A DNA stretch of 64,000 bases, taken from contig CAKNPS010000001.1 in NCBI GenBank assembly GCA_930990515.1, positions 103,280 to 167,279 of the forward strand, read 5' to 3'. Positions 2,128 to 58,422 of the stretch are shown piece by piece; position 1 is the first letter of the stretch; each line of letters begins with the position of its first letter. The translations under genes and the position numbers were made by a program. The stretch comes from an uncultured Clostridia bacterium. Lineage in GTDB: Bacteria > Bacillota > Clostridia > Christensenellales > UBA1242. Below the pieces are notes generated by a model. It was not told where the DNA came from, did no database searches, and saw only the letters and a program-made list of their open reading frames with translations.

Positions 2128-2186
2128 ATTTCTCTAAAAATGCCTAATGTCCGTATAAATTTTTGAAAACGCAAGATACTAGAAAA

Positions 2187-6344: not shown

Positions 6345-6953
6345 ATGCTTATACCTATGGTTGTTGACCAAAATGGTGCAAATGAAAGGTCTTATGACAT
6401 TTATTCAAGATTACTTGAGGACAGAATTGTCTTTTTGACAGGGGAAGTGAATGACCAATCTGCTAATATTGTGATTGCTCAACTCATTTACCTTGAAGGA
6501 AAAAATCCTGACAAAGACATATTCTTATATATCAACAGTCCTGGCGGTTCTGTCAGTGCTGGAATGGCAATTTATGACACAATGCAATACATTAAATGCG
6601 ATGTTTCCACAATCTGCATTGGGCTTGCTGCTTCAATGGGTGCATTCTTACTTTCAAGCGGAACAAAAGGGAAGCGTTTTGCTCTTCCTAACAGTGAAAT
6701 TATGATTCACCAACCACTTGGCGGAGCACAAGGTCAAGCAAGTGATATTGAAATTCAAGCAAGACAAATTCAAAAGATTAAGGCTAAACTTAACAAAATT
6801 TTAAGTGACAACACTGGCAAGCCATTAAAAACAATTGAAAAAGACACTGACAGAGATAACTATATGACTGCTGAAGAAGCAAAAGAATATGGTTTAATTG
6901 ATAACATTTTCTACACAAGAAAAGCAGATAAGAAAGAAGAAAATAAGAAATAA
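6345..6953 (+). CDS. clpP: ATP-dependent Clp protease proteolytic subunit
   Basis: [29 protein letters not shown] (catalytic Ser) and IMIHQPLGG (His). Confidence 0.97.
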
Positions 6954-8409: not shown

Positions 8410-9954
8410 ATGTTATCAAAGTTAAAAAGTTTTGGACTTACTGGTATTGATGGTTTTTTAGTGGAAATTGAAACCGATTTAGTGGGTGGAGTTCCACATT
8501 TTGAACTGGTAGGTTTAGGCGATACTGCCGTTAAAGAAGCAAAAGAAAGAGTAAAGTCTGCAATTAAGAATAGTGGTTTTGAATATCCAATCAAACATAC
8601 CACAGTCAATCTTGCACCAGCAGACATTAAAAAGGAAGGGCCTATTTATGATTTAGGGCTAGCAATCGGCATACTTTCTGCAAGCGAGCAAATAAAAAGT
8701 AAGATTTATAAAAATTACATATTTTTAGGGGAATTATCTTTAGACGGAACAATAAAGAAAGTTAAGGGCGTTTTGCCAATGCTTATTAGTGCTAGAAGCC
8801 AAGGATACACGAAATTTATCATTCCTTATGAGAATAGAGAAGAAGCAAGTTATATTTCTAATATGGAAATTTTTGCTTTCAAAACACTTTCTGATGTTGT
8901 ATGTTTTTTAAATGGAAATGACAATTTTCTATATAATTATGTTGTTAAAACAAAGTCTTATGACGAAACTATGTTGTCAAACACAAACAAACTTGATTTT
9001 GAAAATGTTAAAGGTCAAAAAATGGCCAAACGTGCCTTGGAAATTGCCGCTGCTGGTGGTCATAATGTTTTGATGATTGGCCCACCAGGAAGTGGGAAAA
9101 GTATGCTTGCAAAATGTTTTTCTGGAATACTGCCAAATCTCACTTTTGAAGAAGCACTGGAAGTTACAAAAATTCATTCCATTGCTGGAGAATTAGATTT
9201 AAAGAAAGGAATAATCACAGAGCGACCTTTCCGAACTCCACACCACACGGCATCTGTTGTCAGTTTAACAGGTGGCGGAATACATAGTAAGCCTGGAGAA
9301 ATAAGTTTGGCACACAATGGAGTGTTATTCCTTGATGAGTTTCCGGAATATTCAAGACAATTGATTGAAACATTAAGACAACCGCTTGAAGATGGATATA
9401 TCACTGTGGCAAGGGCTAATCAAACCATCACATATCCAGCATCATTCACACTTATTGCAAGTATGAACCCTTGTCCTTGTGGTAATTATGGTTCAAAAGA
9501 TAGGGAATGCACTTGCACACCTAGTCAAATTCATAAATATCTTTCCAAACTTTCTGGACCTATTATGGACAGAATTGACATTCACGTGGAAGTTGACAAT
9601 ATTTCTTATCACGAACTAAGTGAAGAAAATAAGGAAGAACCATCAAGCAAAATTAAAGAAAGAGTGGATAAGGCAAGAGCAATTCAACTTGAAAGGTTCA
9701 AGGGAGAGAAGAATTTTAATAATGCCAAAATGACAGTGCCACAAACAAAGAAATATTGCAAACTTTCAAAGCCTTGTCAAGATCTAATGGAAATTGCATT
9801 TACCAGCCTTAAACTAAGTGCTAGGGCACACGACAGAATTTTAAAAGTGGCAAGAACGATTGCCGATTTGGATGGCTCGGAAGATATACAACCAAATCAC
9901 ATTGCAGAAGCGGTTTCATATCGCGGATTAGATAGAAAATATTGGAGTTTATAG
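8410..9954 (+). CDS. comM: YifB/ComM family Mg-chelatase-like AAA+ ATPase
   Basis: Lon-protease-like N-domain, Walker A GPPGSGKSMLA, GVLFLDEFPE, and a C-terminal ChlI-like region. About 510 aa is typical for the family. Confidence 0.92.
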   Translation: MLSKLKSFGLTGIDGFLVEIETDLVGGVPHFELVGLGDTAVKEAKERVKSAIKNSGFEYPIKHTTVNLAPADIKKEGPIYDLGLAIGILSASEQIKSKIYKNYIFLGELSLDGTIKKVKGVLPMLISARSQGYTKFIIPYENREEASYISNMEIFAFKTLSDVVCFLNGNDNFLYNYVVKTKSYDETMLSNTNKLDFENVKGQKMAKRALEIAAAGGHNVLMIGPPGSGKSMLAKCFSGILPNLTFEEALEVTKIHSIAGELDLKKGIITERPFRTPHHTASVVSLTGGGIHSKPGEISLAHNGVLFLDEFPEYSRQLIETLRQPLEDGYITVARANQTITYPASFTLIASMNPCPCGNYGSKDRECTCTPSQIHKYLSKLSGPIMDRIDIHVEVDNISYHELSEENKEEPSSKIKERVDKARAIQLERFKGEKNFNNAKMTVPQTKKYCKLSKPCQDLMEIAFTSLKLSARAHDRILKVARTIADLDGSEDIQPNHIAEAVSYRGLDRKYWSL

Positions 9955-11027
9955 TGAACAAAAGTAAAAGGTTTATTGTCTTTTTTTCCGCTTTGGAATT
10001 TACAAATAACAAAATGGAAAAGGCACTTGAAATTGTAGAGAAGCATAAAATAGAAACTATAGAAGATTTAATTAATAATTCAGACTTTCTTTCTATGCTT
10101 TCAACGGAAGAATATCATAACCTTGTTAAAAAAAGTGATGAGATATTGAATTTCATTGAAAATATTGAGAATTCTGAAATTGCTATATTAACGCAAGATG
10201 ATGAAGAATATCCGAAAACACTTTTAGGGATTGACGATGCTCCAAAGGTTTTATATGCCAAGGGAGATTTAAGTCTTTTAAATGATAAGGGTTTAGCAAT
10301 CGTGGGGACTCGTATGCCGTCAAATTATGGTGTTTATGTCACAAACAAATTTGCGGAAGACTTAGCAAAGGCGGGCTTTGTCATTATCAGTGGACTTGCC
10401 TATGGTGTTGATTCAATTTCTCACAAAAAAGCCCTTGAAGTTGGTGGAAAAACAATTGCAGTTTTAGGAAGCGGATTTAACCATATCTATCCTGAAGCAC
10501 ACACCAATCTTGCAAATGAAATTGCAGAAAAAGGACTTTTGCTTTCAGAATATTCGCCATTTACAAGACCAACAAAATTTACTTTTCCTAAAAGAAATAG
10601 AATTATTGCAGGACTCTCTCAAGGCATACTAATTACTGAAGCGAGTGCAAGAAGCGGAACAATTCACACAAAGGAATTTGCCTTAGATTATGGCAAAGAT
10701 TTGTTTGCTGTGCCAGGAAATATCAATTCCTTAAAGAGTGAACTTCCAAATTCCTTAATTAAATCAGGGCAAGCGGAGTGTGTGTTAACTTCCAAAGATA
10801 TTTTGGACTATTATGGCATAGATATAAAAAAGGAAAACAAAAAGGTCATTTCGCTTAATTTTGAGGAGCAAATGATACTTGATTTACTTAAAGATGGTGA
10901 GAAAGATTTTGACGAACTTGCAAAAAAATCTAATATTTCTGTAAATATTTTGAATAGTTATTTGACAACTTTGGAAATTCGTGGTTTAATTAAAAGAATG
11001 CCAGCAAAGACATTTATGTTAAATTAA
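9954..11027 (+). CDS. dprA: DNA processing protein DprA (Smf)
   Basis: Rossmann-like DprA core (IVGTRMPSNYG...SGLAYGVDSISHKKAL...GSGFNHIYP...PKRNRIIAGLS) and a C-terminal winged-helix domain. The start is uncertain: GTG 9954 overlaps the comM stop, with TTG 9942 and ATG 10014 as alternatives. Confidence 0.9.
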   Translation: MNKSKRFIVFFSALEFTNNKMEKALEIVEKHKIETIEDLINNSDFLSMLSTEEYHNLVKKSDEILNFIENIENSEIAILTQDDEEYPKTLLGIDDAPKVLYAKGDLSLLNDKGLAIVGTRMPSNYGVYVTNKFAEDLAKAGFVIISGLAYGVDSISHKKALEVGGKTIAVLGSGFNHIYPEAHTNLANEIAEKGLLLSEYSPFTRPTKFTFPKRNRIIAGLSQGILITEASARSGTIHTKEFALDYGKDLFAVPGNINSLKSELPNSLIKSGQAECVLTSKDILDYYGIDIKKENKKVISLNFEEQMILDLLKDGEKDFDELAKKSNISVNILNSYLTTLEIRGLIKRMPAKTFMLN

Positions 11028-11041
11028 AGGAGTAATATAAT

Positions 11042-13111
11042 TTGAAACTTGTTGTTATCGAAGCCCCAGCAAAAAGGGAAACATTAAAAAAATATTTAGG
11101 TCAAGGCTATGAAGTGTTCGCCACAAAAGGACACATTCGTGACTTACCAGTTAAATCTTTTGCGATTGATATGAATAATCACTATGAACCGCATTATGAA
11201 AATAAACCAGATAAAAAAGAACTCATCTTTGAACTTAAAAACAAAGCAAACAAGGCTGAAGAAGTCTTAATCGCAACCGACCCTGATAGGGAAGGGGAAG
11301 CAATTTCTTGGCATATTGCGAATGTTTTGGGACTTGACCCTAACACAAAATGCCGAATTGAATTTAACGAAATTTCAAAAAATGCCGTTTTAAAAGCACT
11401 TAAAAATCCAAGAGCAATTGACCTTAACCTTGTCAATGCTCAACAAGCAAGGCGAGTTATGGACAGAATTGTGGGCTATAAACTTTCGCCAATCATATCA
11501 AAAAAAGTTGCTCCAAAACTTTCAGCAGGGAGAGTGCAATCAGTTGCCTTAAAACTTGTTGTTGATAGAGAAAAGGAAATTGAGAATTTCGTTCCAGAAG
11601 AATATTGGACCGTGACAGCCTTTCACGAAAAGGATAAAATTTCCTTTAAATCCACATTGCAATCCTATAAAAACAAAAAGATTAAAATTGCAAACAAAGA
11701 CGAAGTAAACAAAGTTTTAGGTGAAATTAAAGGACAAGATTTTGTTGTTTCTTCCATCAAAAAGTCAAAAACAAAATCTCACGCACCAGCACCTTTCACC
11801 ACCAGCACAATGCAACAAGATGCACTCAATAAAGCAGGTATGAGTTTGAAAAGAACAACAGAGTCTGCTCAGCAACTTTATGAAGGTGTGGAAATAAAAG
11901 GCGAAGGAAAAATCGCTCTTATCACATACATTAGAACGGACAGCACCAGAGTTTCAGAAGATGCTCAAAAGGCTTGTCGAGAATTTATTAAAGAGAAATA
12001 TGGCGAAAAATTCTTGCCAGCAAAACCAAACATCTATGCCACAAAGAAAAATGCTCAAGATGCTCACGAGGCAATCCGTCCAATTTCTATGCAGATAACA
12101 CCTGAAATGGTGCAAGACAGTTTGTCAAAAGATAATTATAAACTTTATAAACTCATTTATGAACGCTTTTTGGCAAGCCAAATGAATGAAGCGGAATATT
12201 CAAATGTGACTGCAACGATTGATGTAAATAATTACAATTTTAAGGCAACTGGTAAAACTTTGGAATTTGCCGGCTACACTGCAGTTTATAAAGAATTTGT
12301 TGATGAAGATAAAGAACAAAAACAAGAAATTTCCAAACTACCAGTTTTAAATGAAGGCGAAAAGGTAGAAGTAAAAGATATTAAGGAAGAACAAAAATTC
12401 ACAAAACCGCCAGTTCGCTACACTGAAGCAAGTTTGGTTAAGGCAATGGAAGAAAAGGGGATTGGTCGTCCTGCAACTTATGCCGCAACAATTACCATTT
12501 TGACTGCAAGAAATTATTGCGGAAAGGAAGGTAAATATCTTGTTCCAACTGATTTAGGAAAACGCATAACAGAATATCTTGAAAAATTCTTCAGTGGCGT
12601 TATCAATGTTAAATTTACAGCACATATGGAGAACCGACTTGATGACATTGCAGAAGACAAAGACGATTGGCACGATGTTGTTGACAGTTTTTGGAATGGT
12701 TTTAAAGGACTTTTGGAAAAAGCTGATGCTTCCGCTGTCACAATGAAATCTGAACCTATTGAAACAGATATTATTTGTGAAAAATGTGGTCATAAAATGC
12801 TTTTAAGAGATGGAAAATATGGCAAATTTTTAGGCTGTTCAAACTTTCCAAAATGCAGAAATATAAAACCATATAACACAGAAAATGAAAGAAAACCAGT
12901 TGGTATTTGTCCAAAATGTGGTAAAAATGTTTTTGCTTTTAAATCGAAAAGGGGAAAGACTTTCTATGCCTGCGAAGATAGAAATGGTTGCAATTTTATG
13001 AGTTGGGACATTCCAACAGGCGAGAAATGTCCAAAGTGTGATGCATATCTTATTAGAAAAGGCAAAAAAATCAAATGTTCATCGTGTGATTATGTTAAAG
13101 AAGGGCAATAA
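11042..13111 (+). CDS. topA: DNA topoisomerase I
   Basis: Toprim N-terminus (VVIEAPAKRETLKKYLG...DPDREGE), the topo IA core, and three C-terminal C4 zinc ribbons (CEKCGH, CPKCGK, CPKCDA). TTG start 9 nt after AGGAG. Confidence 0.96.
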   Translation: MKLVVIEAPAKRETLKKYLGQGYEVFATKGHIRDLPVKSFAIDMNNHYEPHYENKPDKKELIFELKNKANKAEEVLIATDPDREGEAISWHIANVLGLDPNTKCRIEFNEISKNAVLKALKNPRAIDLNLVNAQQARRVMDRIVGYKLSPIISKKVAPKLSAGRVQSVALKLVVDREKEIENFVPEEYWTVTAFHEKDKISFKSTLQSYKNKKIKIANKDEVNKVLGEIKGQDFVVSSIKKSKTKSHAPAPFTTSTMQQDALNKAGMSLKRTTESAQQLYEGVEIKGEGKIALITYIRTDSTRVSEDAQKACREFIKEKYGEKFLPAKPNIYATKKNAQDAHEAIRPISMQITPEMVQDSLSKDNYKLYKLIYERFLASQMNEAEYSNVTATIDVNNYNFKATGKTLEFAGYTAVYKEFVDEDKEQKQEISKLPVLNEGEKVEVKDIKEEQKFTKPPVRYTEASLVKAMEEKGIGRPATYAATITILTARNYCGKEGKYLVPTDLGKRITEYLEKFFSGVINVKFTAHMENRLDDIAEDKDDWHDVVDSFWNGFKGLLEKADASAVTMKSEPIETDIICEKCGHKMLLRDGKYGKFLGCSNFPKCRNIKPYNTENERKPVGICPKCGKNVFAFKSKRGKTFYACEDRNGCNFMSWDIPTGEKCPKCDAYLIRKGKKIKCSSCDYVKEGQ

Positions 13112-34074: not shown

Positions 34075-34107
34075 GAAAAAAAATAAGGAGCAATAATTTG
34101 CTCCTTA
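34075..34107 (-). terminator. rho-independent terminator ending the phage-derived operon
   Basis: On the minus strand: TAAGGAGCA-aattat-TGCTCCTTA followed by TTTTTTTT. Confidence 0.8.
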
Positions 34108-34119
34108 AATTTTAACTGT

Positions 34120-34509
34120 CTATTTAACTTTATTTATATCTTCTTTTTCAACATTTTCTTCATATTCACTTTCTGAAACGCTGTTTCCTTCGTCACTATC
34201 TTCTTGTTCTTCAACATTGTTTTCTTCATTATTTTCTTCTTCATTTGGCACTTGTTCTTCAATGGTTTCATCACTGTTTTCATCATTTTTATCGTCTTCT
34301 TCAGTTTCTTCTTCATTTTTTGGAGTATCTTTTGTTACAAGCCCAAAAACGACCAAGATTCCAGCAAAAGACATTATGACATTCTCTACCACAGCATTTT
34401 CAATCTTAAAGCCGAAAATATTTCCAAGACAATTTAAAAAGATTATAAGTGCCCCAGTAAGCGATACCCAAAAACTATAAGACTTCATTCTTTCAAGCAA
34501 TTTCTTCAT
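34120..34509 (-). CDS. phage holin (Staphylococcus/Streptococcus-phage 'Phage_holin_1'-like) with a long acidic tail
   Basis: KSYSFWVSLTGALIIFLNCLGNIFGF...AGILVVFGLVTKDTP matches the KNKxFWxxLxxAxxLF...FG...G(I/V)xTDPT pattern of this holin family. The C-terminal 70 aa are Glu/Asp/Asn-rich. Confidence 0.65.
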   Translation of the reverse strand: MKKLLERMKSYSFWVSLTGALIIFLNCLGNIFGFKIENAVVENVIMSFAGILVVFGLVTKDTPKNEEETEEDDKNDENSDETIEEQVPNEEENNEENNVEEQEDSDEGNSVSESEYEENVEKEDINKVK

Positions 34510-34726
34510 AGTCGTCCTCGTCTTTTAAATATTCTTTGATGTCCAATAGTTCTTGTTTAACATCTTCAAGCGTAGAAAGACTTTTTGTCAAAGTTTCAAT
34601 CGTTTGCTGATATTTTTCTTCTCGCTTTGTGGAATCTTTCATTTGATAGAAAAATAGCCAAACAAAAAGCACTGCAAAAATTCCATTACTTACAACTGTG
34701 CTCAAAACTTCATTCCAAATTTCCAA
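34493..34726 (-). CDS. BhlA/UviB-family holin-like protein
   Basis: GIFAVLFVWLFFYQMKDSTKREEKY matches the BhlA signature FAVLFxWLLFYVMKxSKERExKL. TTG start preceded by GGGAGA. Confidence 0.7.
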   Translation of the reverse strand: MEIWNEVLSTVVSNGIFAVLFVWLFFYQMKDSTKREEKYQQTIETLTKSLSTLEDVKQELLDIKEYLKDEDDYEEIA

Positions 34727-34842
34727 AATTATCTCCCATTTTGTTTTCTTTTAGACTTAAAATGCCATCTACCATATAGTTCTCTCCTTTTAAGTAGAAA
34801 AGTTTTCTGTTATGAAAAGAAATATGACCAGAGTAAATCAAC

Positions 34843-36348
34843 TTACGAAATAACATCAAACACAATCATAGGTTTGGAAATATGGCAATCAGCACTTGTT
34901 GTTTTGAAACTTATTTGAAAATTTCTTCCGTAAACACTTGCAAGTTGTCTTTGTTCTTTTTCACTGCCTTCAAAAGTATATGTTTTTGTTTCTAAATCGC
35001 TTTCAATCACAACTTCAATGTTTTCTTCTGTGTTTAAAATGATTTCCTTAATTTTTTTTAACTTGCCTTTATATCCTAAATCAGTTTTAAAAGAAGTCCA
35101 AAGTTTTTGGTTTGCCGTTGTAAAGATTTTTCCATTATGAGTAAGTTCGCCAAGATGAGCACTGTTTGTTCCATTAAAACAAGCAATAACTTTGCTAAAA
35201 TATGGAACATCAAGAGCAATGATTTTCTTTATATCAACTCCACGCAAAATGTCAACACTGTTTGTTTCTATGTCAATTTCAAACAAAACATTGTTGACAA
35301 AGCCTGTTTCACTTTCTGAGCCAAGTGTTAAACCGTCATTAAAATTGCAACGCGTGGCGAGATAATATTTCCCATCAAGAGAACAAGATGAACAATGAGA
35401 ATTGTCAAGATTTTTAAAATATGAGTCATAATCTTCACAAATCTTTCTTACACTTGTTCCATTAAAGGAATATAGCCCATCACGAGTGGCAAAAAAGACC
35501 AAATCTCCGCAAACAGAAACAGAATTTTCATAAATTTTTGAAGTGGAAGTGTATAAATGAGTGAAAGAAAAGTCGCCAGAAGTGGAATATTCCGAAATTC
35601 TGGTTATTCCATACTCCCTAAATAGATAGATATAGTCGTTAAATGTAACAAGTTTGTTAAAAGCACCGCGTTGGTCCAAAAATTCAATAACCTTATTATC
35701 TGCTCCGTCATAAGTTATAAGGTTTAAATTGTCTTGATATATGAGTTCGTTACGATTTGTGTCAGTAATACCAAAAAACTTATCATAATGCACAGCAACC
35801 GAAAGAAGTGGTGGAACATTTGTATATTTTTCAGTTTCATATCCAGAAGAAAAAATCATTCCAGTTGGCACAAAATATAAGATGCAATCATCATTATCAA
35901 TTCTATATTGGCAAGTGGAAACCAAGTCGTTAAACCCTAAATTAGATTTAGCAACAGGATAACCAACTTCATCAATCACAGCACAAATCCAAAGATAGCC
36001 ACGCTGATCAACAATGTTGATGTGATAATAATATCTGTCATCTTCACTGTCTTGAAAACGAAAACTATCAATCGCAGTAATCCCCGTAATTCCCATACTT
36101 GCCATATCGTAAGTATGAACAGTTGATAAGTTACTTTCACTTGCTGGAACTTCAATATCTTTGAAGCCTAAACCTGTTTGCAGTGCCCCATTTGTTATTG
36201 TAAAGTTATAAAAAGTCTTACATTCATTAGGTTTTGAAATAAGGTCATCTTCATTTGAAATGACCCCATCTTTAAAAATGGAAAAAGTTATGTTCTTTTC
36301 GGTGGTATTTTTGTATTTCTTTAAATTCTTATAGAAAATCAAAGCCAT
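34843..36348 (-). CDS. putative virion structural protein (beta-rich; nozzle/tail-tube-B position of a podovirus-like module)
   Basis: 501 aa, rich in beta-strand-type repeats, with no nucleotide-binding motif. The call rests on gene order alone (portal, scaffold, capsid, small ORF, adaptor, this ORF). Confidence 0.35.
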   Translation of the reverse strand: MALIFYKNLKKYKNTTEKNITFSIFKDGVISNEDDLISKPNECKTFYNFTITNGALQTGLGFKDIEVPASESNLSTVHTYDMASMGITGITAIDSFRFQDSEDDRYYYHINIVDQRGYLWICAVIDEVGYPVAKSNLGFNDLVSTCQYRIDNDDCILYFVPTGMIFSSGYETEKYTNVPPLLSVAVHYDKFFGITDTNRNELIYQDNLNLITYDGADNKVIEFLDQRGAFNKLVTFNDYIYLFREYGITRISEYSTSGDFSFTHLYTSTSKIYENSVSVCGDLVFFATRDGLYSFNGTSVRKICEDYDSYFKNLDNSHCSSCSLDGKYYLATRCNFNDGLTLGSESETGFVNNVLFEIDIETNSVDILRGVDIKKIIALDVPYFSKVIACFNGTNSAHLGELTHNGKIFTTANQKLWTSFKTDLGYKGKLKKIKEIILNTEENIEVVIESDLETKTYTFEGSEKEQRQLASVYGRNFQISFKTTSADCHISKPMIVFDVIS

Positions 36349-36902
36349 TTCCTTCTTGGAAGTCTTGCTTCGCTTCTTTTTCTTGAAAGCACAAACAAAC
36401 TTTCTTTAAATCTTTCTTCCCATATCTCCGCGTCCTCACTAAGTCCGTCTATAAGAAGATACTCGCTGGCAATTCCATAAGCAAAAATTCTTGCAGAAAG
36501 CCCATTATAAAAAGTAAAGTCGTCATTAAGTTCTTCTTTTTCAGGAAGAAAAGAATACGTTATTTCTTTGGCTCTACCAAAAATTTCAACATATTCTGGA
36601 TATGTTTTATATCTTACATTCCTTCCAAAACTTCCCTTAATTTGATATATATTTATAATAGTCTTACTGAGAGTTGAAAAATTTAAAATGGAATTATTAA
36701 CATCAATTTCTTCTGTTATAAGATATGGTAAGTAGTCGCTGGCGATTTCTTCATTCACAAAATTAAAACACCTAAGTAAACTATCCACTTTTTCCTGTTC
36801 CTTTGCTGAGTAAGTTACTGTCTCTTGACTATTTAACTTTTCAGCAAGTTCTTTTTCTCCAATAAATTCACACGCATAAGCAATAATTTCTTTAACTTTC
36901 AT
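36339..36902 (-). CDS. putative head-tail adaptor/connector protein
   Basis: About 187 aa from ATG 36902 (MKVKEII...), overlapping both neighbours. The call is by position only. Confidence 0.35.
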   Translation of the reverse strand: MKVKEIIAYACEFIGEKELAEKLNSQETVTYSAKEQEKVDSLLRCFNFVNEEIASDYLPYLITEEIDVNNSILNFSTLSKTIINIYQIKGSFGRNVRYKTYPEYVEIFGRAKEITYSFLPEKEELNDDFTFYNGLSARIFAYGIASEYLLIDGLSEDAEIWEERFKESLFVLSRKRSEARLPRRKWL

Positions 36903-37212
36903 ATAGCCTTGCCTCCACTTCATTTAAAATATTTTTCTTACGCGATTTTTCAAGTCTTTCATTTTCCGCGTCCAATTCTTTAATTAATTCGTCTCGCTTT
37001 TGACTTTGTGTTTTAAGTGTTAAATCAATCGTTCTTTCATCAAGACAATCAAAAGGAAGGGTCAAACAATATGTCCCTTCCTCTTGTCCACAGTTGTGAA
37101 GTTCAAATGTTTTTCGCGAAATATTGTAAACAACAAAGTAGTCCTTATCAATTTCCTTTAAACGCTTGATTATGTCTTGACAATCGCTATATATTTCAAA
37201 TGAATTATTCAT
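36892..37212 (-). CDS. hypothetical phage protein
   Basis: 106 aa, immediately downstream of the capsid gene, with a C-terminal coiled coil. Confidence 0.45.
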   Translation of the reverse strand: MNNSFEIYSDCQDIIKRLKEIDKDYFVVYNISRKTFELHNCGQEEGTYCLTLPFDCLDERTIDLTLKTQSQKRDELIKELDAENERLEKSRKKNILNEVEARLYES

Positions 37213-37231
37213 ATTTATCCTTTTTTATTAA

Positions 37232-38434
37232 TTAACTTTGTAAACCAGTATCATCAGATGTATCTGGTGCAGTTAAGGTTGTTGCAATATTTGAAAGTTT
37301 TCCTTGTCCTGCTGGCTTTTCGCAAATAAGTTCAGCATATTTAACAAGAGTTGCAGAATAAGTTGGATAGTTTGGATTTTGTCTTAAAATTCTACCACTT
37401 TCATCTTCAAGCCATTTCCAATCACACATTTCATACATTGTGAAATCGTTTGTATTTAAGAAATACATTGTATTATCATTAACAAATTTATCTCCCACAA
37501 CTGGAATACCATTATAAGTGATTGTTTTGAATCCGCCTTTAAGTTCTGTGACATCAATGTTTCTTCTATAAGCACCAAGATATTCTTGATATAATCTACG
37601 AATAGCCTTTGTTGTTGCAATATAGTTGATGTTGGAATTTGCAACATCTTCAAGATAATCAATTACATTTTGAATTGCAGAATCAGAAAGATATATTAAA
37701 TCAGTGCTTGAATATGGATTTAACCATTTATTATCGGTTTTAGAAAGTCCATATAAAGATGTGGCTGAGAAAATTCCTTCAATGCCTGTAATTTCTTTAT
37801 CTTTTGAACCTTGAACAACCAATTTAACACCATTGTTGAAACTTGCTGTTGTAAAATTATTTTCTTCAGTGTAAATTCTCTTGTTTGCTCTATCAACATA
37901 AGTAACATGGAAAAGGTAGTCTGGTTTTTCAGGATTTTGAATAACCATTCCTTCCACAACATTATTAATGTTGCCAGTCACTGTAAAGAAATGATTTGCA
38001 GTTGTCACACCATTAATTGTAATAAGAGTTCCTGAGCCATCTCCAAATAACATTCTTCCAAGGTTGAAGTTTGATGATTCAATAAGTTTTTCCATTTCAT
38101 CGTTAAGCAAGTTAATAAAACTATTTACATTGTTTGATGTCGCTCTAAGTGCCTTATCTGAAATTTCAATCTTTCCATAAAGGTTTTTAAGTTCTGCAAC
38201 AAAACTTACATAGTTTGTGGCAGAAGAAGCAGGAAGTTCGCTAGTTTCATCTCCTGCACCGATACCACCATTGATACCTACAGGAGCAGCCTTTCTTACT
38301 TCTTTTCCGTAAATATGATTTGTTGAGCGTTTAATTTGAGCAAGAAGTGGATTTGCGGCAACATTTAATTGATTTGCAACAATTCCCAAATACACTTCTT
38401 TAAGTGCATTTTCAGCACTAGTTAAAGTTACCAT
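37232..38434 (-). CDS. phage major capsid protein (HK97-fold type, scaffold-dependent)
   Basis: 400 aa directly after the scaffold gene. The segment GKIEISDKALRAT...LNDEMEKLIESSNFNLGRMLFGDGSGTL resembles the conserved ...l.Ge..L..a......l.GDGtG. region of HK97-like capsid proteins. Confidence 0.6.
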   Translation of the reverse strand: MVTLTSAENALKEVYLGIVANQLNVAANPLLAQIKRSTNHIYGKEVRKAAPVGINGGIGAGDETSELPASSATNYVSFVAELKNLYGKIEISDKALRATSNNVNSFINLLNDEMEKLIESSNFNLGRMLFGDGSGTLITINGVTTANHFFTVTGNINNVVEGMVIQNPEKPDYLFHVTYVDRANKRIYTEENNFTTASFNNGVKLVVQGSKDKEITGIEGIFSATSLYGLSKTDNKWLNPYSSTDLIYLSDSAIQNVIDYLEDVANSNINYIATTKAIRRLYQEYLGAYRRNIDVTELKGGFKTITYNGIPVVGDKFVNDNTMYFLNTNDFTMYEMCDWKWLEDESGRILRQNPNYPTYSATLVKYAELICEKPAGQGKLSNIATTLTAPDTSDDTGLQS

Positions 38435-38450
38435 TCTTTTCTCCTTTTAA

Positions 38451-39089
38451 TTAGGAAAACAAATTTTTAAGATAATCTTTTGCATCTTTTAAATTTTGGG
38501 GTTTTTGAGTGGCAGTCGAAGTTGCCACCCTTTTCCCCGCGGAAGATATTTTTATTGGCGATTTGTTTTCCGTTAATTGATTTACATATTTTTCTAGGAC
38601 TATGTTCTTAAGTTTTTCATTCCCTAAAACATAGTTTGCAACTTCCCCATCGGTCTCGCTTGACCCTTTAAGTTTTTCAAAAATCATCTCTGCCCAAACG
38701 TAGCTAAAGGGGTCGTCCATTTTTTTTAGACTTTCATTTTCCAAAACTCTTTTTTTGAGTTCTTCGGAATATGAATTTGCCTCACCGTTTGAAGAAAGGA
38801 ATGTTTTAAGTTTGTTATCCACTTGACTATCAAGTTCTTTTTCTTCTTCCATCTTATCTTTCTCAAATTCGGCTAGCCTTTGGCTTTTTTTCGTGAACTC
38901 TTTTTCAAGGTTGTTATAGGCATCAAGTAGAGCCTCAACATTTTTAAATTTTCCAACTTTTTCACCGTTTTCCGCTTTGCTCTCTTCTCCTACAATAGCA
39001 CTTTGTTCACCTTGCTGGGAGCCGTCATTAGTTTCATCATCTAAAACTAAATCTTCTGGTTGTTCCCAGTATTTTTCATCTTCATTCAT
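38451..39089 (-). CDS. phage scaffolding protein
   Basis: 212 aa with an acidic N-terminus and long helical/coiled-coil content, located between the portal and capsid genes. Confidence 0.55.
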   Translation of the reverse strand: MNEDEKYWEQPEDLVLDDETNDGSQQGEQSAIVGEESKAENGEKVGKFKNVEALLDAYNNLEKEFTKKSQRLAEFEKDKMEEEKELDSQVDNKLKTFLSSNGEANSYSEELKKRVLENESLKKMDDPFSYVWAEMIFEKLKGSSETDGEVANYVLGNEKLKNIVLEKYVNQLTENKSPIKISSAGKRVATSTATQKPQNLKDAKDYLKNLFS

Positions 39090-39094
39090 ATTTT

Positions 39095-40936
39095 TTAACC
39101 TTCCTTTATAAGTTTTTTATGTTCTCGAATATGTTTCAAAAAGATTTCTTCAGTTTCTTTATCTGCTTCCTTAAAGAAGTTCCCAGAAAGCATATAAGCA
39201 ATATGTTCGTTGATGTGCAAATTGTGGTCATCAATCTCCTTAACTTCCACATTTTCTTTTTCCATCATATCAAGATTTTCATTATCCGCTCTTTTAATTT
39301 GAAGTTCGTTTAAATCTTTAACATCTTCCCAAACACCAAAGCCTATCATTTCCAAAATCTTATTTTTCATTGTGGTGGAAATTTGGCCATTTTCGTCAGA
39401 TAAAAGTCCTTTGTCGAGCAAAGTATAAATCATATTTCTTCTTTGCGACAATGTGTCATTGCTTTCAACTTCGGTGTCAAGTTCAACATCATCGCTTGAA
39501 ATATCGCTAGATTTAAAATAAAAGATTTCAACATCGCCATTTTCTCCAACAATTTTGGTTAATCTTGGAAAAGTTGCGTATTGCTTATATAATCTTAAAA
39601 TTTGTTTGCCAATAAGTTTGATTGCTGATTTTATGCTGTCCGTTGTGAATGACAAGCGTGTTTCATTTTCATCAATCAAAAGTTCGAGTGCCACCCCACT
39701 TATAGTGGAAGAAATGGAGTCCATAGTTCCCATTTCTGTCGTTCCACTGATTGTGGTAAATTCATTTAATAATCTTTCTTCTTCCTTCTCAAAATCAGTT
39801 GGTAAAGTTTCCGTTGCCAAATATTCTGGTGGATTTGCTCCCTGCCTATAAACCAAAATTTTGCCAGGTGCAAGTCCTTCTTCTTCCAAATTATCAATGT
39901 CCACACTGCCGTCTTCCACTGAAAGCACACCAAGAGTTAATCGATTTAAATATTCGTGTTTACGATTTTTAACGGCATTATATGCTCTTTGAATAGGAAT
40001 CATTCTATCAATAAGACTAACACCCCAAAAACTTCCCACATTGTCACAACAAACCTGTTTAATAAATGGGAAATCGCGTTTTCCATCAGTTCCATTGATG
40101 TATGGCAATTCTCCGTCAAAAACCAATTCTTCGCCTGCCACAATGATTAATCTTCCATTTGGATATTCTTCACTTGGTCTAACATATTTTTCAATCACAA
40201 TTCCTGCATCTTGTTTTGTCACTTCAATAAGTTTTTGGCCAATACCAGTAAGTCCAAGTCCACCCACAGAAGCAGTGTTGTCAAGTGAAAAAACGTTAAT
40301 ATCTTCTCCTTCAATTTCCACACCATACATCTCTTTGATTTCATCTTTGGAATAAACCTTTGCGTGAATAATGCTTTGACAATCTTCCAAATTCTCGTTT
40401 GCAGTGCTGTCTGTATAAATTTCAAATGGCGAACAAACTGAAATGTCAACATCACCAGTTTTTATTTTTCGTCCGTCTTCTTCAATGGCAACAACTTGTC
40501 CAAGATTGCTGTTCCAATAAACTTTATAGAAACTCGTTCCACAAATTTCACTCCATTTTGTTGCTTGATTGATTTTTTGAGAAAGAGAATATTTATTTGC
40601 CACTGAGTCTAGAATTTTTTTAGACATCTTAGCGGTATAAACATCACTTTCATCATTACTTGCAGGAATAACTCGCATTTTAGGCTTAATTCTTGAAAGT
40701 TTTGATAGTCTTATATCAATTTTTGGTGCAATATGATTGAATACTTCGCGTTCTTGCCAAAAGTATTCCCTATTCGTATCATCAAGAAGTCCACCAAAGC
40801 CGACCGAACAAAATTGATTTCCCATATAGAAATTCATATTAAGTCGCCACTTAAGGTCAAAACTTTTTCTTTCGTTCACGCGTCTAGCAAAATCGTCAAG
40901 GACTTCTTTCACCAATTCATTTTCAATTTTCTTCAT
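39095..40936 (-). CDS. phage portal protein
   Basis: 613 aa. N-terminal KWRLNMNFYMGNQF, central FPFIKQVCCDNVGSFWGVSLIDRMIPIQRAYN (portal wing/stem pattern), and first position in the head module. Confidence 0.65.
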   Translation of the reverse strand: MKKIENELVKEVLDDFARRVNERKSFDLKWRLNMNFYMGNQFCSVGFGGLLDDTNREYFWQEREVFNHIAPKIDIRLSKLSRIKPKMRVIPASNDESDVYTAKMSKKILDSVANKYSLSQKINQATKWSEICGTSFYKVYWNSNLGQVVAIEEDGRKIKTGDVDISVCSPFEIYTDSTANENLEDCQSIIHAKVYSKDEIKEMYGVEIEGEDINVFSLDNTASVGGLGLTGIGQKLIEVTKQDAGIVIEKYVRPSEEYPNGRLIIVAGEELVFDGELPYINGTDGKRDFPFIKQVCCDNVGSFWGVSLIDRMIPIQRAYNAVKNRKHEYLNRLTLGVLSVEDGSVDIDNLEEEGLAPGKILVYRQGANPPEYLATETLPTDFEKEEERLLNEFTTISGTTEMGTMDSISSTISGVALELLIDENETRLSFTTDSIKSAIKLIGKQILRLYKQYATFPRLTKIVGENGDVEIFYFKSSDISSDDVELDTEVESNDTLSQRRNMIYTLLDKGLLSDENGQISTTMKNKILEMIGFGVWEDVKDLNELQIKRADNENLDMMEKENVEVKEIDDHNLHINEHIAYMLSGNFFKEADKETEEIFLKHIREHKKLIKEG

Positions 40937-41153
40937 TTTTCCTCCTTCTTAATGTTCTGTTTGGTTTGTAGTGTGAATCTATTGCTTTTGGAACAAAAAT
41001 CTTTGATAATTCAGTGTATAGGTTTTTCATACACTCTTCACAAAAAGCAAATTCATTTTTGAAAAGTCCACGAGTGGAAACATAATAGTCTGCTAGGTTT
41101 CTGCACCCACCAAAATCACATTTCACTTTGTGTGTACATTTTTCAACTTTCAC
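40923..41153 (-). CDS. small Cys-rich (zinc-ribbon-like) protein
   Basis: 76 aa with CxxxxxCxxxxC...CxxC and a basic tail RTLRRRKNEEN. It overlaps the TerS-like stop and the portal start. Confidence 0.45.
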   Translation of the reverse strand: MKVEKCTHKVKCDFGGCRNLADYYVSTRGLFKNEFAFCEECMKNLYTELSKIFVPKAIDSHYKPNRTLRRRKNEEN

Positions 41154-41430
41154 TTTCTTCTTCCTCCTTTAAAAGTTTTAAAAGTCGCCTTTTTTCTTTT
41201 TTAAGTTCGCTATCAGTCATCTCTTGAATTTTATCGTCTGTCAAAATATCTTGCCTTTCAAGTAACATTTTCATTGCAGTAATATCAGGTGGATTAAATT
41301 TTTTGGTAACCTTCTTTTTGCAAAGAACAGGATTGCCATTTTCGTCCAGTTGATATTCTTCCACAACCTCGTTACAAGAAAAACCAAGTGCTTTTTTCAA
41401 GAGTGCTTTTTTAATGTCACTTTCTTCCAC
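41143..41430 (-). CDS. terminase small subunit-like protein
   Basis: The start was moved to GTG 41430, 4 nt after AAGGAGG. ALGFSCNEVVEEYQLDENGNPVLCKKKVTKKFNPPDITAMKMLLE resembles the ALGY...K.V.K..PPD..A..fWLkN core of a TerS family. The track's extra N-terminal 23 codons cover the promoter. Confidence 0.45.
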   Translation of the reverse strand: MEESDIKKALLKKALGFSCNEVVEEYQLDENGNPVLCKKKVTKKFNPPDITAMKMLLERQDILTDDKIQEMTDSELKKEKRRLLKLLKEEEESES

Positions 41431-41457
41431 AACACCTCCTTGCAACTTTCGTATTCG

Positions 41458-41486
41458 ATTATATTTTAAGAAAATTGCAAATTCAA
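41458..41486 (-). promoter_or_regulatory. sigma-A-type promoter of the phage-derived operon
   Basis: On the minus strand: TTGAAT (41486-41481), 17 nt spacer, TATAAT (41463-41458). Confidence 0.6.
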
Positions 41487-41555
41487 GAAAGAGTGACAAT
41501 TTTTTGTTTTCACAAAATTTGAAATAGAAAATAAAATGTATTTGTAGGAGTAATT

Positions 41556-52420: not shown

Positions 52421-52661
52421 AAAAAATGCCGTCCTATTATTAGGACGACATAGCCGTGGTACCACCTAACTTTATGCTTATAGAAGCACCTTAATTTTGC
52501 ATTTTACGCCTGCATACGCGACAACCCCTACACAAGATAAACTCTTCAAGGTGCAACTAGAAAGTGAATTCAATGCCACATTCCTTGCCTTATTTCCAGC
52601 AACCAAAGGCTCTCTGTAAGAAACTTTTTGACATCTACTAGTCTTTCATCATCGTTTTTAC
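52421..52661 (-). promoter_or_regulatory. T-box riboswitch leader (Phe, specifier UUC) controlling pheST
   Basis: On the minus strand: AGAGA in Stem I, specifier loop GAA-UUC-A (UUC at 52568-52566), the conserved T-box AGGTGGTACCACGG (52467-52454), and then terminator GTCGTCCTA-ataa-TAGGACGGC plus T8 (52450-52421). Confidence 0.88.
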
Positions 52662-54999: not shown

Positions 55000-57900
55000 T
55001 TATAATACACAAGCAAAATTTGCTAAAGCGATAGTGACTCTAAAACCTAACATCATATCCATATCAGTTTGCGTAACCGAGCCAAATCTTGTGATACTCT
55101 CGCCCACTTTTATATTGCTTCCTAAACCTCTTGTCCAATACATTTTGCCTCTTAACATGTCGCTCACTAAATCGCTATATTCTGCCTCACACTCTCCAAA
55201 CACTTCCGCTATTTCCTCGACATTTGAAACTATATAATTTGCAGTCAATATTTCGTCTGTTTCCGAATCTAAAATTCCATTATTTATATTCATATACTTA
55301 TCTACTGTGAAATTTCGCGTCGCTAAAAGTTCTGTATCTATGGTTGTGCTGGAAATTAAGCTGTTTGAGTTGGTGTATAAATCAGACTCAACAAAGCCTT
55401 CTCCTAAACTCAACCCAACACTATCAAACACACTTGTAAAGACTATCTTCTCTGTTACCGCTGTCACATTCGCACTTTCTGTACCAAATTCTTCTTCGTA
55501 TTCTCCTGCTAAAACATATCTTACTGATAAAACCTTGTAATATGTGTTGTTCGATGACAAATACGCATATTCTTCTCCGTTAAAGGTATATGAATTTAAA
55601 GCATTTCCTCCCATTTGATAAGTTTGAGTAATGGCACTTTCTGAATTTCTTAAATTGTCTAGCTCTGAGATGATTCCACTGTCCGTCACCCTATCTTGTG
55701 GAAACATTCCCATTTCCACATACCAGTATCCTTTCTCTTCGTCAAAATGTGCCGGATTTGTCGCTTCCCATTTAGCATAAATTGTAGCATCACTTGTTGT
55801 AAAATTATTGTTTCCAACAATATTTCCAGTTTCGTCGATAATTTGATTTCCTAAACCATTTTGCAAAGTATAATATCCACCAAAATCATAGCCCGCTTTT
55901 TCGCGAAGCCCAACTACACTCTCAATTGTATAAATTTGATTAGTTGTTGCACTGTCAGAATAGAAACCAGTATCATATTTTATAAAAATTGTCGAAGCTG
56001 ACTCGCCATTTTCGTGCTCAAGTGTAATTTCATAGGTAATAGGTTGCCAAACAGCGTATAAAGTCACCGACTGTGATGCGCTGTAAGTTTGATTAAACAT
56101 ATAATTTTCACCAGGATAATAGCTTGGACTGGTTGCTATGTTTGAAGTTGACCAACCTAGGAAATTATATCCTGTCCGTGTTGGAATACTATTCGAAATT
56201 GTAAAACTAATTGAGTTTCTTATATTCCCACACTGGTTCCAATATTGTGCTGATGACAATGTAACATTTGTGCCAGAACCTCCGTTAAAATTAAAATAAA
56301 GATAAACGGAACGCCAAGAAATTGCATACCAAGATAATGTTGATGTGCTTTGAGTGTAAGTTGTATCTGAAATTGTTGTATTACCAGCATATCTTCTTTC
56401 GATAGTTGAATTACTGAAAGCCCAACCATATAAACTCCAACCATTAGAATTATAATAAGGTAGATATGAGGCGGAACGTGTTGTGAAACTTTGGTTATAA
56501 GTTCTTATTTGCGTGTCAGAACTTGTTACTCCGCTACTATTTCGATAATGATAAATGTTGTTATAAGTTTTTGCCGTCCATCTAGCATAAAGTGTATGAT
56601 TAGCAGTTTGTGTGAAAACTGTTGAAGAAGTTACAGGGCTGCCTGTAAAACTAGAATTCGTATACCAACCGTTGAAAGTGTAACCTGTTCGAACAGGTGT
56701 TGGAAGAGTGCCATAAGCTTCTCCATACTCCACAGTAATAGGAGCTAACGGCTCTTCAAAGGAAATATCTGAAACTTTTTGGACTGCACAATTTCTTATG
56801 TATAAGTAATCACCAGACTGCCATTCTGATGAATAAAATGTAAAAGCAAAAAAATCATAATTAATAGCAGTGAAAGTATTTGTAAACGTTTGCCAAGAAG
56901 ATGTTATTGTTTCAGTTGTTCTTTCACTCATTTCATGGCCAAAATAATCAATATTAATAGTTCGAGAAGCTCTTAACTCAATACTCCACTTATATTCTTC
57001 TCCAACAGTCAAAGGAACTCCTTCTAAGTATGGGCCACTTTGATCGCTTGTCGAATTTGAAGTCAAAGATATAACCACATTTTGCGAGTTTCCTTCAATA
57101 GTAGATGTCGAAGCGCCAGTTACGGAATTAAATTGCACAGAATATGGATACCGAACATAGTTATCCGAATCAAAATTAATATAATAAGTATTTGACATCT
57201 GAATTACGATTATATCGTCCCAGTCACCTGGATCATGACCAGTAAATGACGCAGTATAAGTATATGTTCCATCACTTTCAACAATAGTTCCTCGTGAACA
57301 AGTTACGCTTTCAACATAATAACCTGTGGTAGGTATAATATTTGAAATCCTAATCTCTTGATCTTTTCCACAATATGGGTCTTGCTGGTCAGTAATATTA
57401 CTATAAGAGCTTCCTGAGTATTGGTTCCAAGTATTCATTGTTCCACTTAAATAATCTTGTACCCCACTGGGGTTTAATATGTTTATATCAATATTATATA
57501 AATATTCCATTTGAATTGTAATAATTATATCCATTCCTCCAGTAGGCGTTCCATAATCTTGTATATTGGATCCTGGCCAAGAAAGAGAAAAGATAAAAGA
57601 GCCATTATTACTAGTCCTCGATATTAATGCGCTAATATAAACAGTATATGTAATGTACTTAAAATAATAACCTGTGGTTGGTGTTATATTCCAAATCATA
57701 AGAGAAGAACCTGCAACCAAATATACTTCACCTTGCTCGTTGTTAACATTGGTGTAATTTTGATTTCCCCAATGTGTACTATAATTCATTGTCCCACTAT
57801 TAAAATCTTGTTCTCCGTTAGGGTTCAAAATATTTATATCAACTCTATATCTTTTTAATGAAAGATATACATCAAAAGTAATGGAACCATTGCCAAAAAT

Positions 57901-58422
57901 ACCAGTTTGCAAGTGATGTCTATGATATGTATCAGTTATGTTCGCATTACAACCAGAACAATAAATATGGTCAAAAGCAAAACCTCTTATACCACCATAA
58001 GCACCATTATTATTTAAACCTGAAAATCGAACAGTAGGATACCAGTTATTCCATAAAGTCTCACTATGACTTAAAGTAGTAGTTGCACTATTTATACTAA
58101 TAGTTTCTGAAACTTGAGTTCCACTCTTCCCTTCTATCCAAGCACTTGCAGTCCCAGTATAAGCAGAATCATATTTATTTGTAGTATAATCTCCAGTAAC
58201 TAATTGTCTATAAACACGTAAAGTTATAGTTACTGTATTTTGAATTTGTATATCGTCACTATCGTCTAATATAGGGTCATTATTTTGTGAATCATCAGAG
58301 CCGTTTGAATTATCTTCATTTTGTGAATTGTCTATTCCCTCCCCCGCATCTTCTGAATAGGAAGAATTGTCAGTGCAAGCGGATAAAATCAGTCCGCCAC
58401 CGATGACGGTAAAAGCAAACAA
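55000..58422 (-). CDS. large repeat-containing cell-surface lipoprotein (Listeria-Bacteroides/InlB-B-type repeats); 5' end displaced by an A7 frameshift
   Basis: The open frame contains ...GGGLILSAC (lipobox), an Asp/Asn/Ser-rich linker, two ~120-aa tandem domains (Y[RN][VI]DINILNP.G.QD..SGTMN...I.PTTGYY), and three G(Y)xFxGW...LYAxW repeats (TGYTFNGWYT, TGYNFLGWST, AGYDFGGYYT). The natural ATG (58459) is 1 nt out of frame. Confidence 0.8.
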   Translation of the reverse strand: MFAFTVIGGGLILSACTDNSSYSEDAGEGIDNSQNEDNSNGSDDSQNNDPILDDSDDIQIQNTVTITLRVYRQLVTGDYTTNKYDSAYTGTASAWIEGKSGTQVSETISINSATTTLSHSETLWNNWYPTVRFSGLNNNGAYGGIRGFAFDHIYCSGCNANITDTYHRHHLQTGIFGNGSITFDVYLSLKRYRVDINILNPNGEQDFNSGTMNYSTHWGNQNYTNVNNEQGEVYLVAGSSLMIWNITPTTGYYFKYITYTVYISALISRTSNNGSFIFSLSWPGSNIQDYGTPTGGMDIIITIQMEYLYNIDINILNPSGVQDYLSGTMNTWNQYSGSSYSNITDQQDPYCGKDQEIRISNIIPTTGYYVESVTCSRGTIVESDGTYTYTASFTGHDPGDWDDIIVIQMSNTYYINFDSDNYVRYPYSVQFNSVTGASTSTIEGNSQNVVISLTSNSTSDQSGPYLEGVPLTVGEEYKWSIELRASRTINIDYFGHEMSERTTETITSSWQTFTNTFTAINYDFFAFTFYSSEWQSGDYLYIRNCAVQKVSDISFEEPLAPITVEYGEAYGTLPTPVRTGYTFNGWYTNSSFTGSPVTSSTVFTQTANHTLYARWTAKTYNNIYHYRNSSGVTSSDTQIRTYNQSFTTRSASYLPYYNSNGWSLYGWAFSNSTIERRYAGNTTISDTTYTQSTSTLSWYAISWRSVYLYFNFNGGSGTNVTLSSAQYWNQCGNIRNSISFTISNSIPTRTGYNFLGWSTSNIATSPSYYPGENYMFNQTYSASQSVTLYAVWQPITYEITLEHENGESASTIFIKYDTGFYSDSATTNQIYTIESVVGLREKAGYDFGGYYTLQNGLGNQIIDETGNIVGNNNFTTSDATIYAKWEATNPAHFDEEKGYWYVEMGMFPQDRVTDSGIISELDNLRNSESAITQTYQMGGNALNSYTFNGEEYAYLSSNNTYYKVLSVRYVLAGEYEEEFGTESANVTAVTEKIVFTSVFDSVGLSLGEGFVESDLYTNSNSLISSTTIDTELLATRNFTVDKYMNINNGILDSETDEILTANYIVSNVEEIAEVFGECEAEYSDLVSDMLRGKMYWTRGLGSNIKVGESITRFGSVTQTDMDMMLGFRVTIALANFACVL

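Follow-up and report, generated by a model that had tools for sequence, protein, structure and literature searches.

To our knowledge, only a handful of gene transfer agent (GTA) families have been recognized, nearly all of them in Alphaproteobacteria, and GTA gene clusters are hard to distinguish from dead prophages. The closest described system to the locus presented here is FpGTA of Faecalibacterium prausnitzii, a podovirus-like, two-operon GTA-like element with 40-nm particles that contain ~9-kb DNA (Borodovich et al., Nat Commun 2026, PMC12946183). We analysed a 64,000-nucleotide stretch (hereafter the window) from an uncultured Clostridia bacterium of GTDB family UBA1242, order Christensenellales (GenBank assembly GCA_930990515.1, contig CAKNPS010000001.1, positions 103,280–167,279). 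On its minus strand, at 34084–41498, lies an island of ten open reading frames (ORFs), all intact. An earlier reading of the letters alone (the sequence-only reading) had taken this island for a minimal capsid island and proposed three origins: a capsid-forming satellite, a domesticated GTA-like locus or an unusually clean prophage remnant. The second of these fits the evidence. The island is probably an operon for head, neck, nozzle and lysis proteins that belongs to a domesticated, vertically inherited, podovirus-derived GTA-like element of UBA1242.

In both FpGTA and the UBA1242 element, about ten podovirus-like genes are clustered at a fixed place in the chromosome of a gut Clostridia host. 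Their shared gene products are a portal, a capsid protein, a scaffold-like protein, a nozzle and a small terminase subunit (TerS) in which no DNA-binding domain is obvious; the nozzle of each matched PDB entry 8eap, and each has more genes (fibres or a receptor-binding protein) at a second locus. FpGTA is near-ubiquitous in its host genus, and the UBA1242 element in its host family. The two capsid proteins differ, however: Table S2 of PMC12946183 lists that of FpGTA under the N4-gp56 family, whereas that of the UBA1242 element belongs to NF033394. FpGTA operon I has the large terminase subunit (TerL) next to the portal and a Prp protease, whereas the window operon lacks TerL and no protease was seen in it. 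FpGTA keeps a holin and an endolysin in operon II, whereas two holins end the head operon of the window, where no endolysin was seen. The host families are different, and FpGTA is backed by electron microscopy, proteomics and DNA-size data whereas the UBA1242 element is known from genes alone. Compared by their descriptions, the two elements seem to be separate domestications or, at the closest, distant relatives.

Two other particle-forming elements are instructive. As summarised in PMC12946183 and PMC11841831, RcGTA of Alphaproteobacteria is likewise domesticated, vertically inherited and under purifying selection, with genes spread over several loci and a TerS that lacks a DNA-binding domain; host-integrated regulators and release by lysis would be a further likeness. 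RcGTA differs in being siphovirus-like, with a prohead protease, a long tail, TerL in the main cluster and a Gram-negative host, and the two have no sequence relationship. PBSX of Bacillus subtilis, also mentioned in PMC12946183, is a Firmicute particle derived from a defective phage; its late regulator, Xpf, is sigma-like, host DNA is its cargo, and its release depends on lysis by a holin. It differs in being a myovirus-like 28-kb contiguous element with a repressor, present in few species, that makes a killing particle.

The nearest deposited phages for the capsid protein, portal and TerL are Jasmine (Arthrobacter) and Shocker (Microbacterium), which are Jasminevirus-like podoviruses. They share with the element the order TerL, portal, scaffold, capsid and, later, an adaptor/nozzle-equivalent pair. 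Unlike the element, each is a complete lytic phage of 45 kb that also carries genes for replication, an endolysin, a tail spike and internal proteins; sequence identity is low, and their hosts are in another phylum (Actinobacteria). Our literature search found no published description of the UBA1242 cluster. The suggestion in the sequence-only reading that a GTA-like locus would be new for this kind of organism was broadly right, except that a comparable podovirus-like element, FpGTA, is now on record from a different family of gut Clostridia (PMC12946183).

The operon is conserved in content, order and position among its relatives. A species scan with one genome per GTDB species gave at least 565 matching stretches (two patterns were used, and the distinct genomes are somewhat fewer), of which we examined the best 80, from 80 different uncultured Clostridia assemblies. 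The ten genes occur in identical order in 80 of these 80 species representatives. Within the same set, the ABC transporter lies divergently upstream in most, and the membrane protein and polA lie downstream in the closest 15. Like the island, the 80 related loci contain packaging, head, neck, nozzle and lysis genes only, between housekeeping flanks. Scored stop-to-stop, all ten ORFs are intact at 55 of the 59 loci that cover the whole region; three of the other four have short, divergent proteins and one is probably a chimeric contig.

Selection and descent point the same way as gene order. The sequence-only reading had asked for presence, absence and the ratio of non-synonymous to synonymous substitution (dN/dS) to be compared across relatives. 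For close pairs with unsaturated synonymous sites, dN/dS is 0.03–0.25 for every island gene, including the unassigned ones, and 0.03–0.15 for the flanking host genes. Protein distances of portal plus capsid follow those of the ABC transporter (Mantel r 0.91; 0 of 999 permutations as high). The structural genes are chromosomally fixed without replication, integration or lysogeny modules, and are inherited vertically under purifying selection across the host clade; both are hallmarks of a GTA. Here, comparative evidence alone separates a GTA-like operon from a dead prophage. Related loci are also rare in viromes, with only 22 in the 2.9 million contigs of IMG/VR.

Two contigs depart from the common layout. 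On one metagenome contig of a sister species (L095, 7520–9341) the portal is split into 351- and 265-aa ORFs, by a frameshift in that variant or through misassembly. One species-representative contig (L024, 1–4964) is without the terS-to-scaffold part upstream of the capsid gene; its capsid protein is 99% identical to that of L123, which has the full operon, so that a chimeric assembly or a deletion is the probable explanation for L024.

By predicted structure, the largest ORF after the portal changes the picture of the island. Where the sequence-only reading had seen no tail, the 501-aa protein (34843–36348; all island features are on the minus strand) is by its structure a podovirus tail nozzle with a beta-propeller. 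Its AlphaFold2 model, made with 93 homologues, is confident, with a predicted local distance difference test (pLDDT) score of 87.9 and a predicted template-modelling (TM) score of 0.87. The best PDB matches of this model in Foldseek are all podovirus nozzle proteins, aligned over the full length: the tail of Pseudomonas phage Pa223 at the top (9nwi_Y, E=8e-21, TM 0.70), then Vibrio phage VP1 (8zkk_O, TM 0.69), phage GP4, T7 gp12 and P22 gp10 (8eap_D, E=4e-13, TM 0.56–0.59). The island thus encodes a short tail. The description of the locus as a minimal capsid island without TerL, tail or regulator therefore stands for TerL and the regulator, and fails for the tail. The analogy drawn with the head and tail-hub module of T7-like podoviruses was a good call. 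The island combines a P22-type portal, an HK97-fold capsid protein and a beta-propeller nozzle with a candidate scaffold and a probable adaptor, and with no protease found, all features of a P22/T7-like podovirus module.

The head and packaging genes precede the nozzle. The first ORF (41143–41430) encodes a truncated TerS-like protein of 95 aa, with a GTG start, an AGGAGG ribosome-binding site, a phrog_309 match (E=5e-6) and dN/dS 0.07–0.20. Eighteen of 19 family members match phrog_309 and cover only profile positions ~198–279 of 319; by this measure, the TerS-like protein lacks the N-terminal DNA-binding part. The P22-type portal (613 aa; 39095–40936) matches PF16510 (7.9e-26) and phrog_156 (5.4e-40), has dN/dS 0.03–0.08 and is 24% identical to the portals of Arthrobacter phage Jasmine-like podoviruses. 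The 400-aa major capsid protein (37232–38434) is of the HK97 fold and podovirus type. It scores 240 bits against NCBIfam NF033394 capsid_maj_Podo (cut-off 80) and 1.5e-43 against phrog_14242, with no match to the N4-gp56 model at E≤0.01, and shares 27% identity with its counterparts in phages Shocker and Jasmine. Its relatives number in the thousands in databases, many on contigs of 100–400 kb. These matches bear out the TerS-like, portal and HK97-type capsid labels of the sequence-only reading.

Two smaller head-operon proteins are less easily placed. A zinc-ribbon-like protein of 76 aa (40923–41153; dN/dS 0.06–0.15) has C12, C17, C38 and C41 invariant in 84 homologues. The four cysteines agree with its earlier Zn-ribbon label, to which searches of Pfam, PHROG and NCBIfam profiles added no family match. 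The 212-aa protein (38451–39089) is acidic and coiled-coil-like in composition, and again has no family match. Its gene sits between those for the portal and the capsid protein, as in Jasmine and Shocker, and this position makes it a candidate scaffold.

Between the capsid protein and the nozzle lie two putative neck proteins. The 106-aa protein (36892–37212) is conserved, being present in all relatives examined with dN/dS 0.03–0.10. It has no family match, a profile search of PDB sequences gave noise only, and its position suggests that it is possibly a head-completion or connector protein. The 187-aa protein (36339–36902) is helical and its gene is directly upstream of the nozzle gene. Its best hhalign match is gp32 of Microbacterium phage Shocker, a 'tail tube protein', and is weak (E 0.003, 135 columns); position and this match together make it the probable portal-to-nozzle adaptor. 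When the 106- and 187-aa families were compared with Jasmine and Shocker proteins by hhalign, the matches were weak at best. Profile searches of PDB sequences with the 187-aa family gave noise only, and a fused 187+501-aa query for homologues of both returned 501-aa relatives only. A single-sequence AlphaFold model of the 187-aa protein reached pLDDT 53, and we discarded its Foldseek matches (Mcl-1 and others) as meaningless.

Two holin genes end the operon, as the sequence-only reading had said. The BhlA-family holin (77 aa; 34493–34726) matches PF10960 (3.5e-17) and has many invariant columns across 77 homologues, and the second holin (129 aa; 34120–34509) matches phrog_297 (7e-12) and PF04531 (4.9e-5). 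The second holin has an acidic low-complexity tail made of imperfect short repeats (window 34171–34318); among relatives the protein is 58–195 aa overall and the tail is widely variable. In 17 relatives that form one subclade a DUF7934 gene (PF25588, ~300 aa) lies between the nozzle and the holins (for example L066 13772–14662 and L053 13780–14685). It is missing from the window, and might encode a tail needle or plug.

The ten ORFs are arranged as a putative single transcription unit. A promoter-like TTGAAT-17-TATAAT site (41486–41458, found by consensus scan) and an intrinsic-terminator-like hairpin with a T-run directly 3′ of the last ORF (34084–34107; 10-bp stem with 4 GC pairs, then TTTTTTTT) bracket the operon, much as the sequence-only reading had it, and independent gene calls on sister contigs return the same ten genes. 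Its statement that most neighbours overlap by 10–17 nt was too strong: five of the nine junctions do so, and the other four are gaps, three of 5–19 nt and one of 116 nt. The GC content of the island (0.30–0.35) equals that of its flanks, in line with the host-like composition noted by eye. The flanking genes encode on one side a 105-aa membrane protein, polA, infC and rlmB, and on the other an ABC ATPase/permease, RecN and ArgR; the membrane-protein, polA and ABC transporter genes had been named in the earlier reading. We found no att-like direct repeats flanking the island, no integrase, repressor or prohead protease in profile searches of the island proteins, and no replication or primase module in or beside it in family searches.

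The promoter is conserved, and this is what gives it weight. Bare consensus matches are frequent in this AT-rich DNA (47 promoter-like sites in the window against 33 expected), so the real support for the promoter comes from relatives. Of 83 distinct relatives, 61 carry the composite motif TGKCA-N7-9-TTGnnn-N15-19-TAnnnT ahead of terS, where shuffled sequences predict 0.3, and the motif is kept even where TerL immediately precedes terS. In the window this region (41458–41498) comprises an upstream box TGTCAC (41493–41498), a −35 element TTGAAT, a 17-nt spacer and a −10 element TATAAT, found by the consensus scan and by conservation in relatives. We read this as a putative sigma-A-type promoter with a conserved activator site. 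A sigma-54 reading of TGGCA-N7-TTG was not adopted, because the spacing is off by one and the motif ends in TTGA instead of TTGC. Next comes a conserved 5′ leader, GAAAGTTGC (41435–41450), and after it the AGGAGG ribosome-binding site. The leader occurs once in the window and recurs between the −10 element and the ribosome-binding site in most relatives. In the nearest sister species (L003, ~6800–6940) and in L090–L095, the promoter region that separates terS from the ABC ATPase gene contains an inserted array of ~22-nt GC-rich tandem repeats (…TCTAAAGTGAGGCACGGCCTC…); the window is without the array.

The relatives supply what the island lacks. The earlier premise of a minimal island fits the locus and not the element: in relatives, TerL belongs to the same element, together with a sigma-like regulator and a candidate receptor-binding protein. 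TerL is contiguous with the operon in L054–57, L066, L070, L073, L087–89 and L102–118. In the first ten of these, a subclade, a TerL of 475–481 aa precedes the operon on the same strand, and in the more distant L102–L118 TerL directly abuts terS, which is probably the ancestral layout. The TerL proteins match Terminase_6N and Terminase_6C, have invariant Walker A, Walker B and nuclease residues, and are 26–32% identical to the TerL of Jasmine and Shocker.

A recurrent set of genes accompanies TerL. Two genes always go with it, one for a Sigma70_r4_2 protein (~180 aa) and one, divergently transcribed, for a protein of ~280 aa; both lie upstream of TerL in the subclade above. Beside or near TerL is a DUF285/BspA leucine-rich-repeat (LRR), Glug or InlB-repeat protein. 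In that subclade the protein adjoining TerL is 750–1126 aa long, conserved over ~100 N-terminal residues and variable in the remainder, which carries Glug/M26_N or InlB-repeat domains. In L083 and L096 TerL lies apart from the operon, together with the sigma-like gene and the divergent partner of that gene; this locus sits between groESL and hrcA-grpE-dnaK, and a DUF285/BspA-LRR protein of 827 aa comes next. In L124, L126–131 and L137–146 the separate TerL locus is next to dnaB, and in L124, L126–131 and L137 a variable LRR protein of 809–1155 aa lies a few kb away. The sigma-like (RinA/ArpU-like) protein is the obvious candidate for the activator that would act at the conserved box; no clear match to that TGKCA box was seen ahead of unlinked TerL genes. 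The LRR_5 (BspA-like) protein is 809 aa in L126/L127 (14067–16499) and 1155 aa in L137 (6955 onward), despite TerL proteins that share one 90%-identity cluster (P0343 vs P0342). This size difference suggests rapid turnover of a surface-binding module.

Because TerS, portal and nozzle are strongly constrained within the window's clade, we infer that TerL is retained there as well. When distance profiles of TerL and head genes were compared, the dnaB-context TerL (L124/L126) fitted the window's clade slightly best (r 0.81–0.87), in a test that does not discriminate between candidates.

Together, these observations suggest a mechanism. From a regulated promoter of sigma-A type, which has a conserved box upstream, a single transcript would be made, encoding TerS without a DNA-binding domain, the Zn-ribbon protein, portal, scaffold, capsid protein, two neck proteins, nozzle and two holins. 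A procapsid would assemble on the portal with the scaffold and be filled by TerL from the second locus, where the sigma-like regulator and the variable LRR/repeat receptor-binding candidate are also encoded. The cargo would be host DNA, probably packaged without sequence specificity because TerS has no recognisable DNA-binding domain. The adaptor and nozzle would close the particle, and the holins would release particles by lysing a subpopulation, so that the overall mode would be that of a gene transfer agent. The full form of this proposal, to which we give somewhat less than an even chance, is that UBA1242, with its reduced genomes and probable dependence on partners, has kept a multi-locus podovirus-derived GTA throughout its diversification, in which a nonspecific TerS/TerL pair packages host DNA and a fast-evolving LRR protein targets cells.

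Several points weigh against a GTA-like element. TerL was found nowhere in the 64-kb window by tblastn and profile hidden Markov models, in agreement with the sequence-only reading of the island, and the same searches of the window found neither the sigma-like regulator nor the receptor-binding candidate. When shared samples, coverage and overlap of host flanks were compared, no TerL locus could be linked with the clade of the window. We recognised no endolysin gene in the operon or next to it. The adaptor and scaffold were assigned from gene position and a weak profile match, and co-divergence was gauged against the adjacent host genes. In this lineage the element is known only through its genes: that the genome keeps TerL elsewhere, and that particles form, carry host DNA and deliver it, we infer. 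Finally, PMC12946183 placed the genomes that showed GTA-like packaging in Christensenellaceae and not in UBA1242.

Of the other explanations, the one that survives best is that a domesticated particle is selected for a role other than transfer, which we judge unlikely. It could be a PBSX-like killing or bacteriocin-like agent, or a means of lysis with DNA release that benefits kin or partners, and its particles would adsorb through the variable LRR protein without productive DNA delivery. The same alternative was raised for FpGTA (PMC12946183). It would suit a BhlA ('bacteriocin-like') holin and a second holin at the end of the operon, hosts that are predicted to be partner-dependent (PMC12306168), and a receptor-binding candidate that differs greatly from lineage to lineage and even among strains (809 versus 1155 aa). 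However, portal, TerS and TerL are all strongly constrained, which implies that packaging of DNA matters. Retention of DNA-uptake genes in such tiny genomes (ComM and DprA in the window, ComEC in L123) also argues against it, circumstantially.

Distinctly less probable is that TerL has been lost in the window's clade and that DNA-free shells are reused there as a protein or metabolite container or as a surface structure. The missing TerL, in the window and among loci that could be tied to its clade, is what this explanation has in its favour. Yet TerS, portal and nozzle have no known non-packaging role and evolve within the clade at dN/dS 0.03–0.20, and related genomes hold separate TerL loci in at least two chromosomal contexts. 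Moreover, the 64-kb window is only ~6% of a genome of ~1 Mb.

A capsid-forming satellite (similar to a phage-inducible chromosomal island, PICI) that depends on a helper phage for TerL and tail components, the first origin offered by the sequence-only reading, is very improbable. A locus without TerL, fibres or a regulator is what such an element might look like. However, the hallmarks of capsid-forming PICIs and satellites are an integrase with attachment (att) sites, a replication module and variable presence. We found neither integrase, att repeats nor a replication/primase module, in agreement with the earlier statements about repeats and integrase; position and gene order are identical across the 80 species (the best 80 of at least 565) and co-diverge with the host. 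The cognate TerL is chromosomal, lies beside housekeeping genes and co-evolves with the element. Some 30 kb from the island, the window does encode a 350-aa Phage_integrase-family tyrosine recombinase (3565–4617, plus strand) beside SpoIVB (2163–3353); it is most likely a chromosomal Xer-type recombinase, not an integrase of the element.

A recent prophage deletion remnant drifting to loss can be dismissed as the least probable of all, for although the gene content is incomplete for a phage, synteny, intact ORFs, purifying selection, host-like composition and co-divergence with the host refute it, the patchy distribution, pseudogenes and relaxed selection of a decaying remnant are not seen, and no fuller prophage occupies this site in the sister-species contigs; a full prophage there was what the sequence-only reading had named as a possible refutation of its claim.

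The preferred reading, a domesticated GTA-like element, has to be seen in the context of its host. The window's clade is represented by Candidatus Caccovivens faecavium (1.1 Mb, 34% GC), which GTDB places in family UBA1242, order Christensenellales, as it does the relative Ca. Caccopulliclostridium gallistercoris. UBA1242 genomes range from under 1 Mb to 1.6 Mb (PMC12306168, PMC8035907); most are <1 Mb, and their owners are predicted to be metabolically dependent on partners while retaining sporulation genes (PMC12306168). SpoIVB is one such gene in the window. ComM (Mg-chelatase-like), DprA and TopA are encoded in a row at 8410–13111, so that DNA-uptake and processing genes are kept in a genome of ~1 Mb, and in L123 ComEC lies ~4 kb downstream of the head operon. 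ComM, DprA and ComEC could bear on the uptake of particle-delivered DNA, as a circumstantial point. Elsewhere in the window are a T-box leader (Rfam RF00230, 110 bits; 52438–52661, minus strand) upstream of pheS/pheT and a 1140-aa predicted lipoprotein with Listeria-Bacteroides repeats (55000–58422, minus strand), whose similarity to the receptor-binding candidates beside the TerL genes of relatives was undetectable.

The UBA1242 element is a new, well-supported candidate among GTA-like domesticated phages. The operon is conserved, syntenic and under purifying selection in hundreds of species whose genomes have otherwise been shrinking, which makes it a strong candidate, open to direct tests, for a second GTA of podovirus type among the Firmicutes of the gut. 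The element further offers candidate genes for packaging reported without a genetic basis: whole metagenome-assembled genomes of Christensenellaceae (HGM11616, ~4.1 kb; QANA01) show GTA-like packaging by genes not yet identified (PMC12946183). There is a caution here for virome and prophage pipelines, as such loci are flagged as viral (the 22 IMG/VR entries). If the GTA reading is true, this is an undescribed, independently domesticated GTA family that costs its host ~1% of a ~1-Mb genome; it could account for GTA-like whole-genome packaging in gut viromes and would give tiny genomes a route to recombination. It also raises the question of why obligately dependent bacteria with genomes of ~1 Mb pay for a particle that kills its producer.

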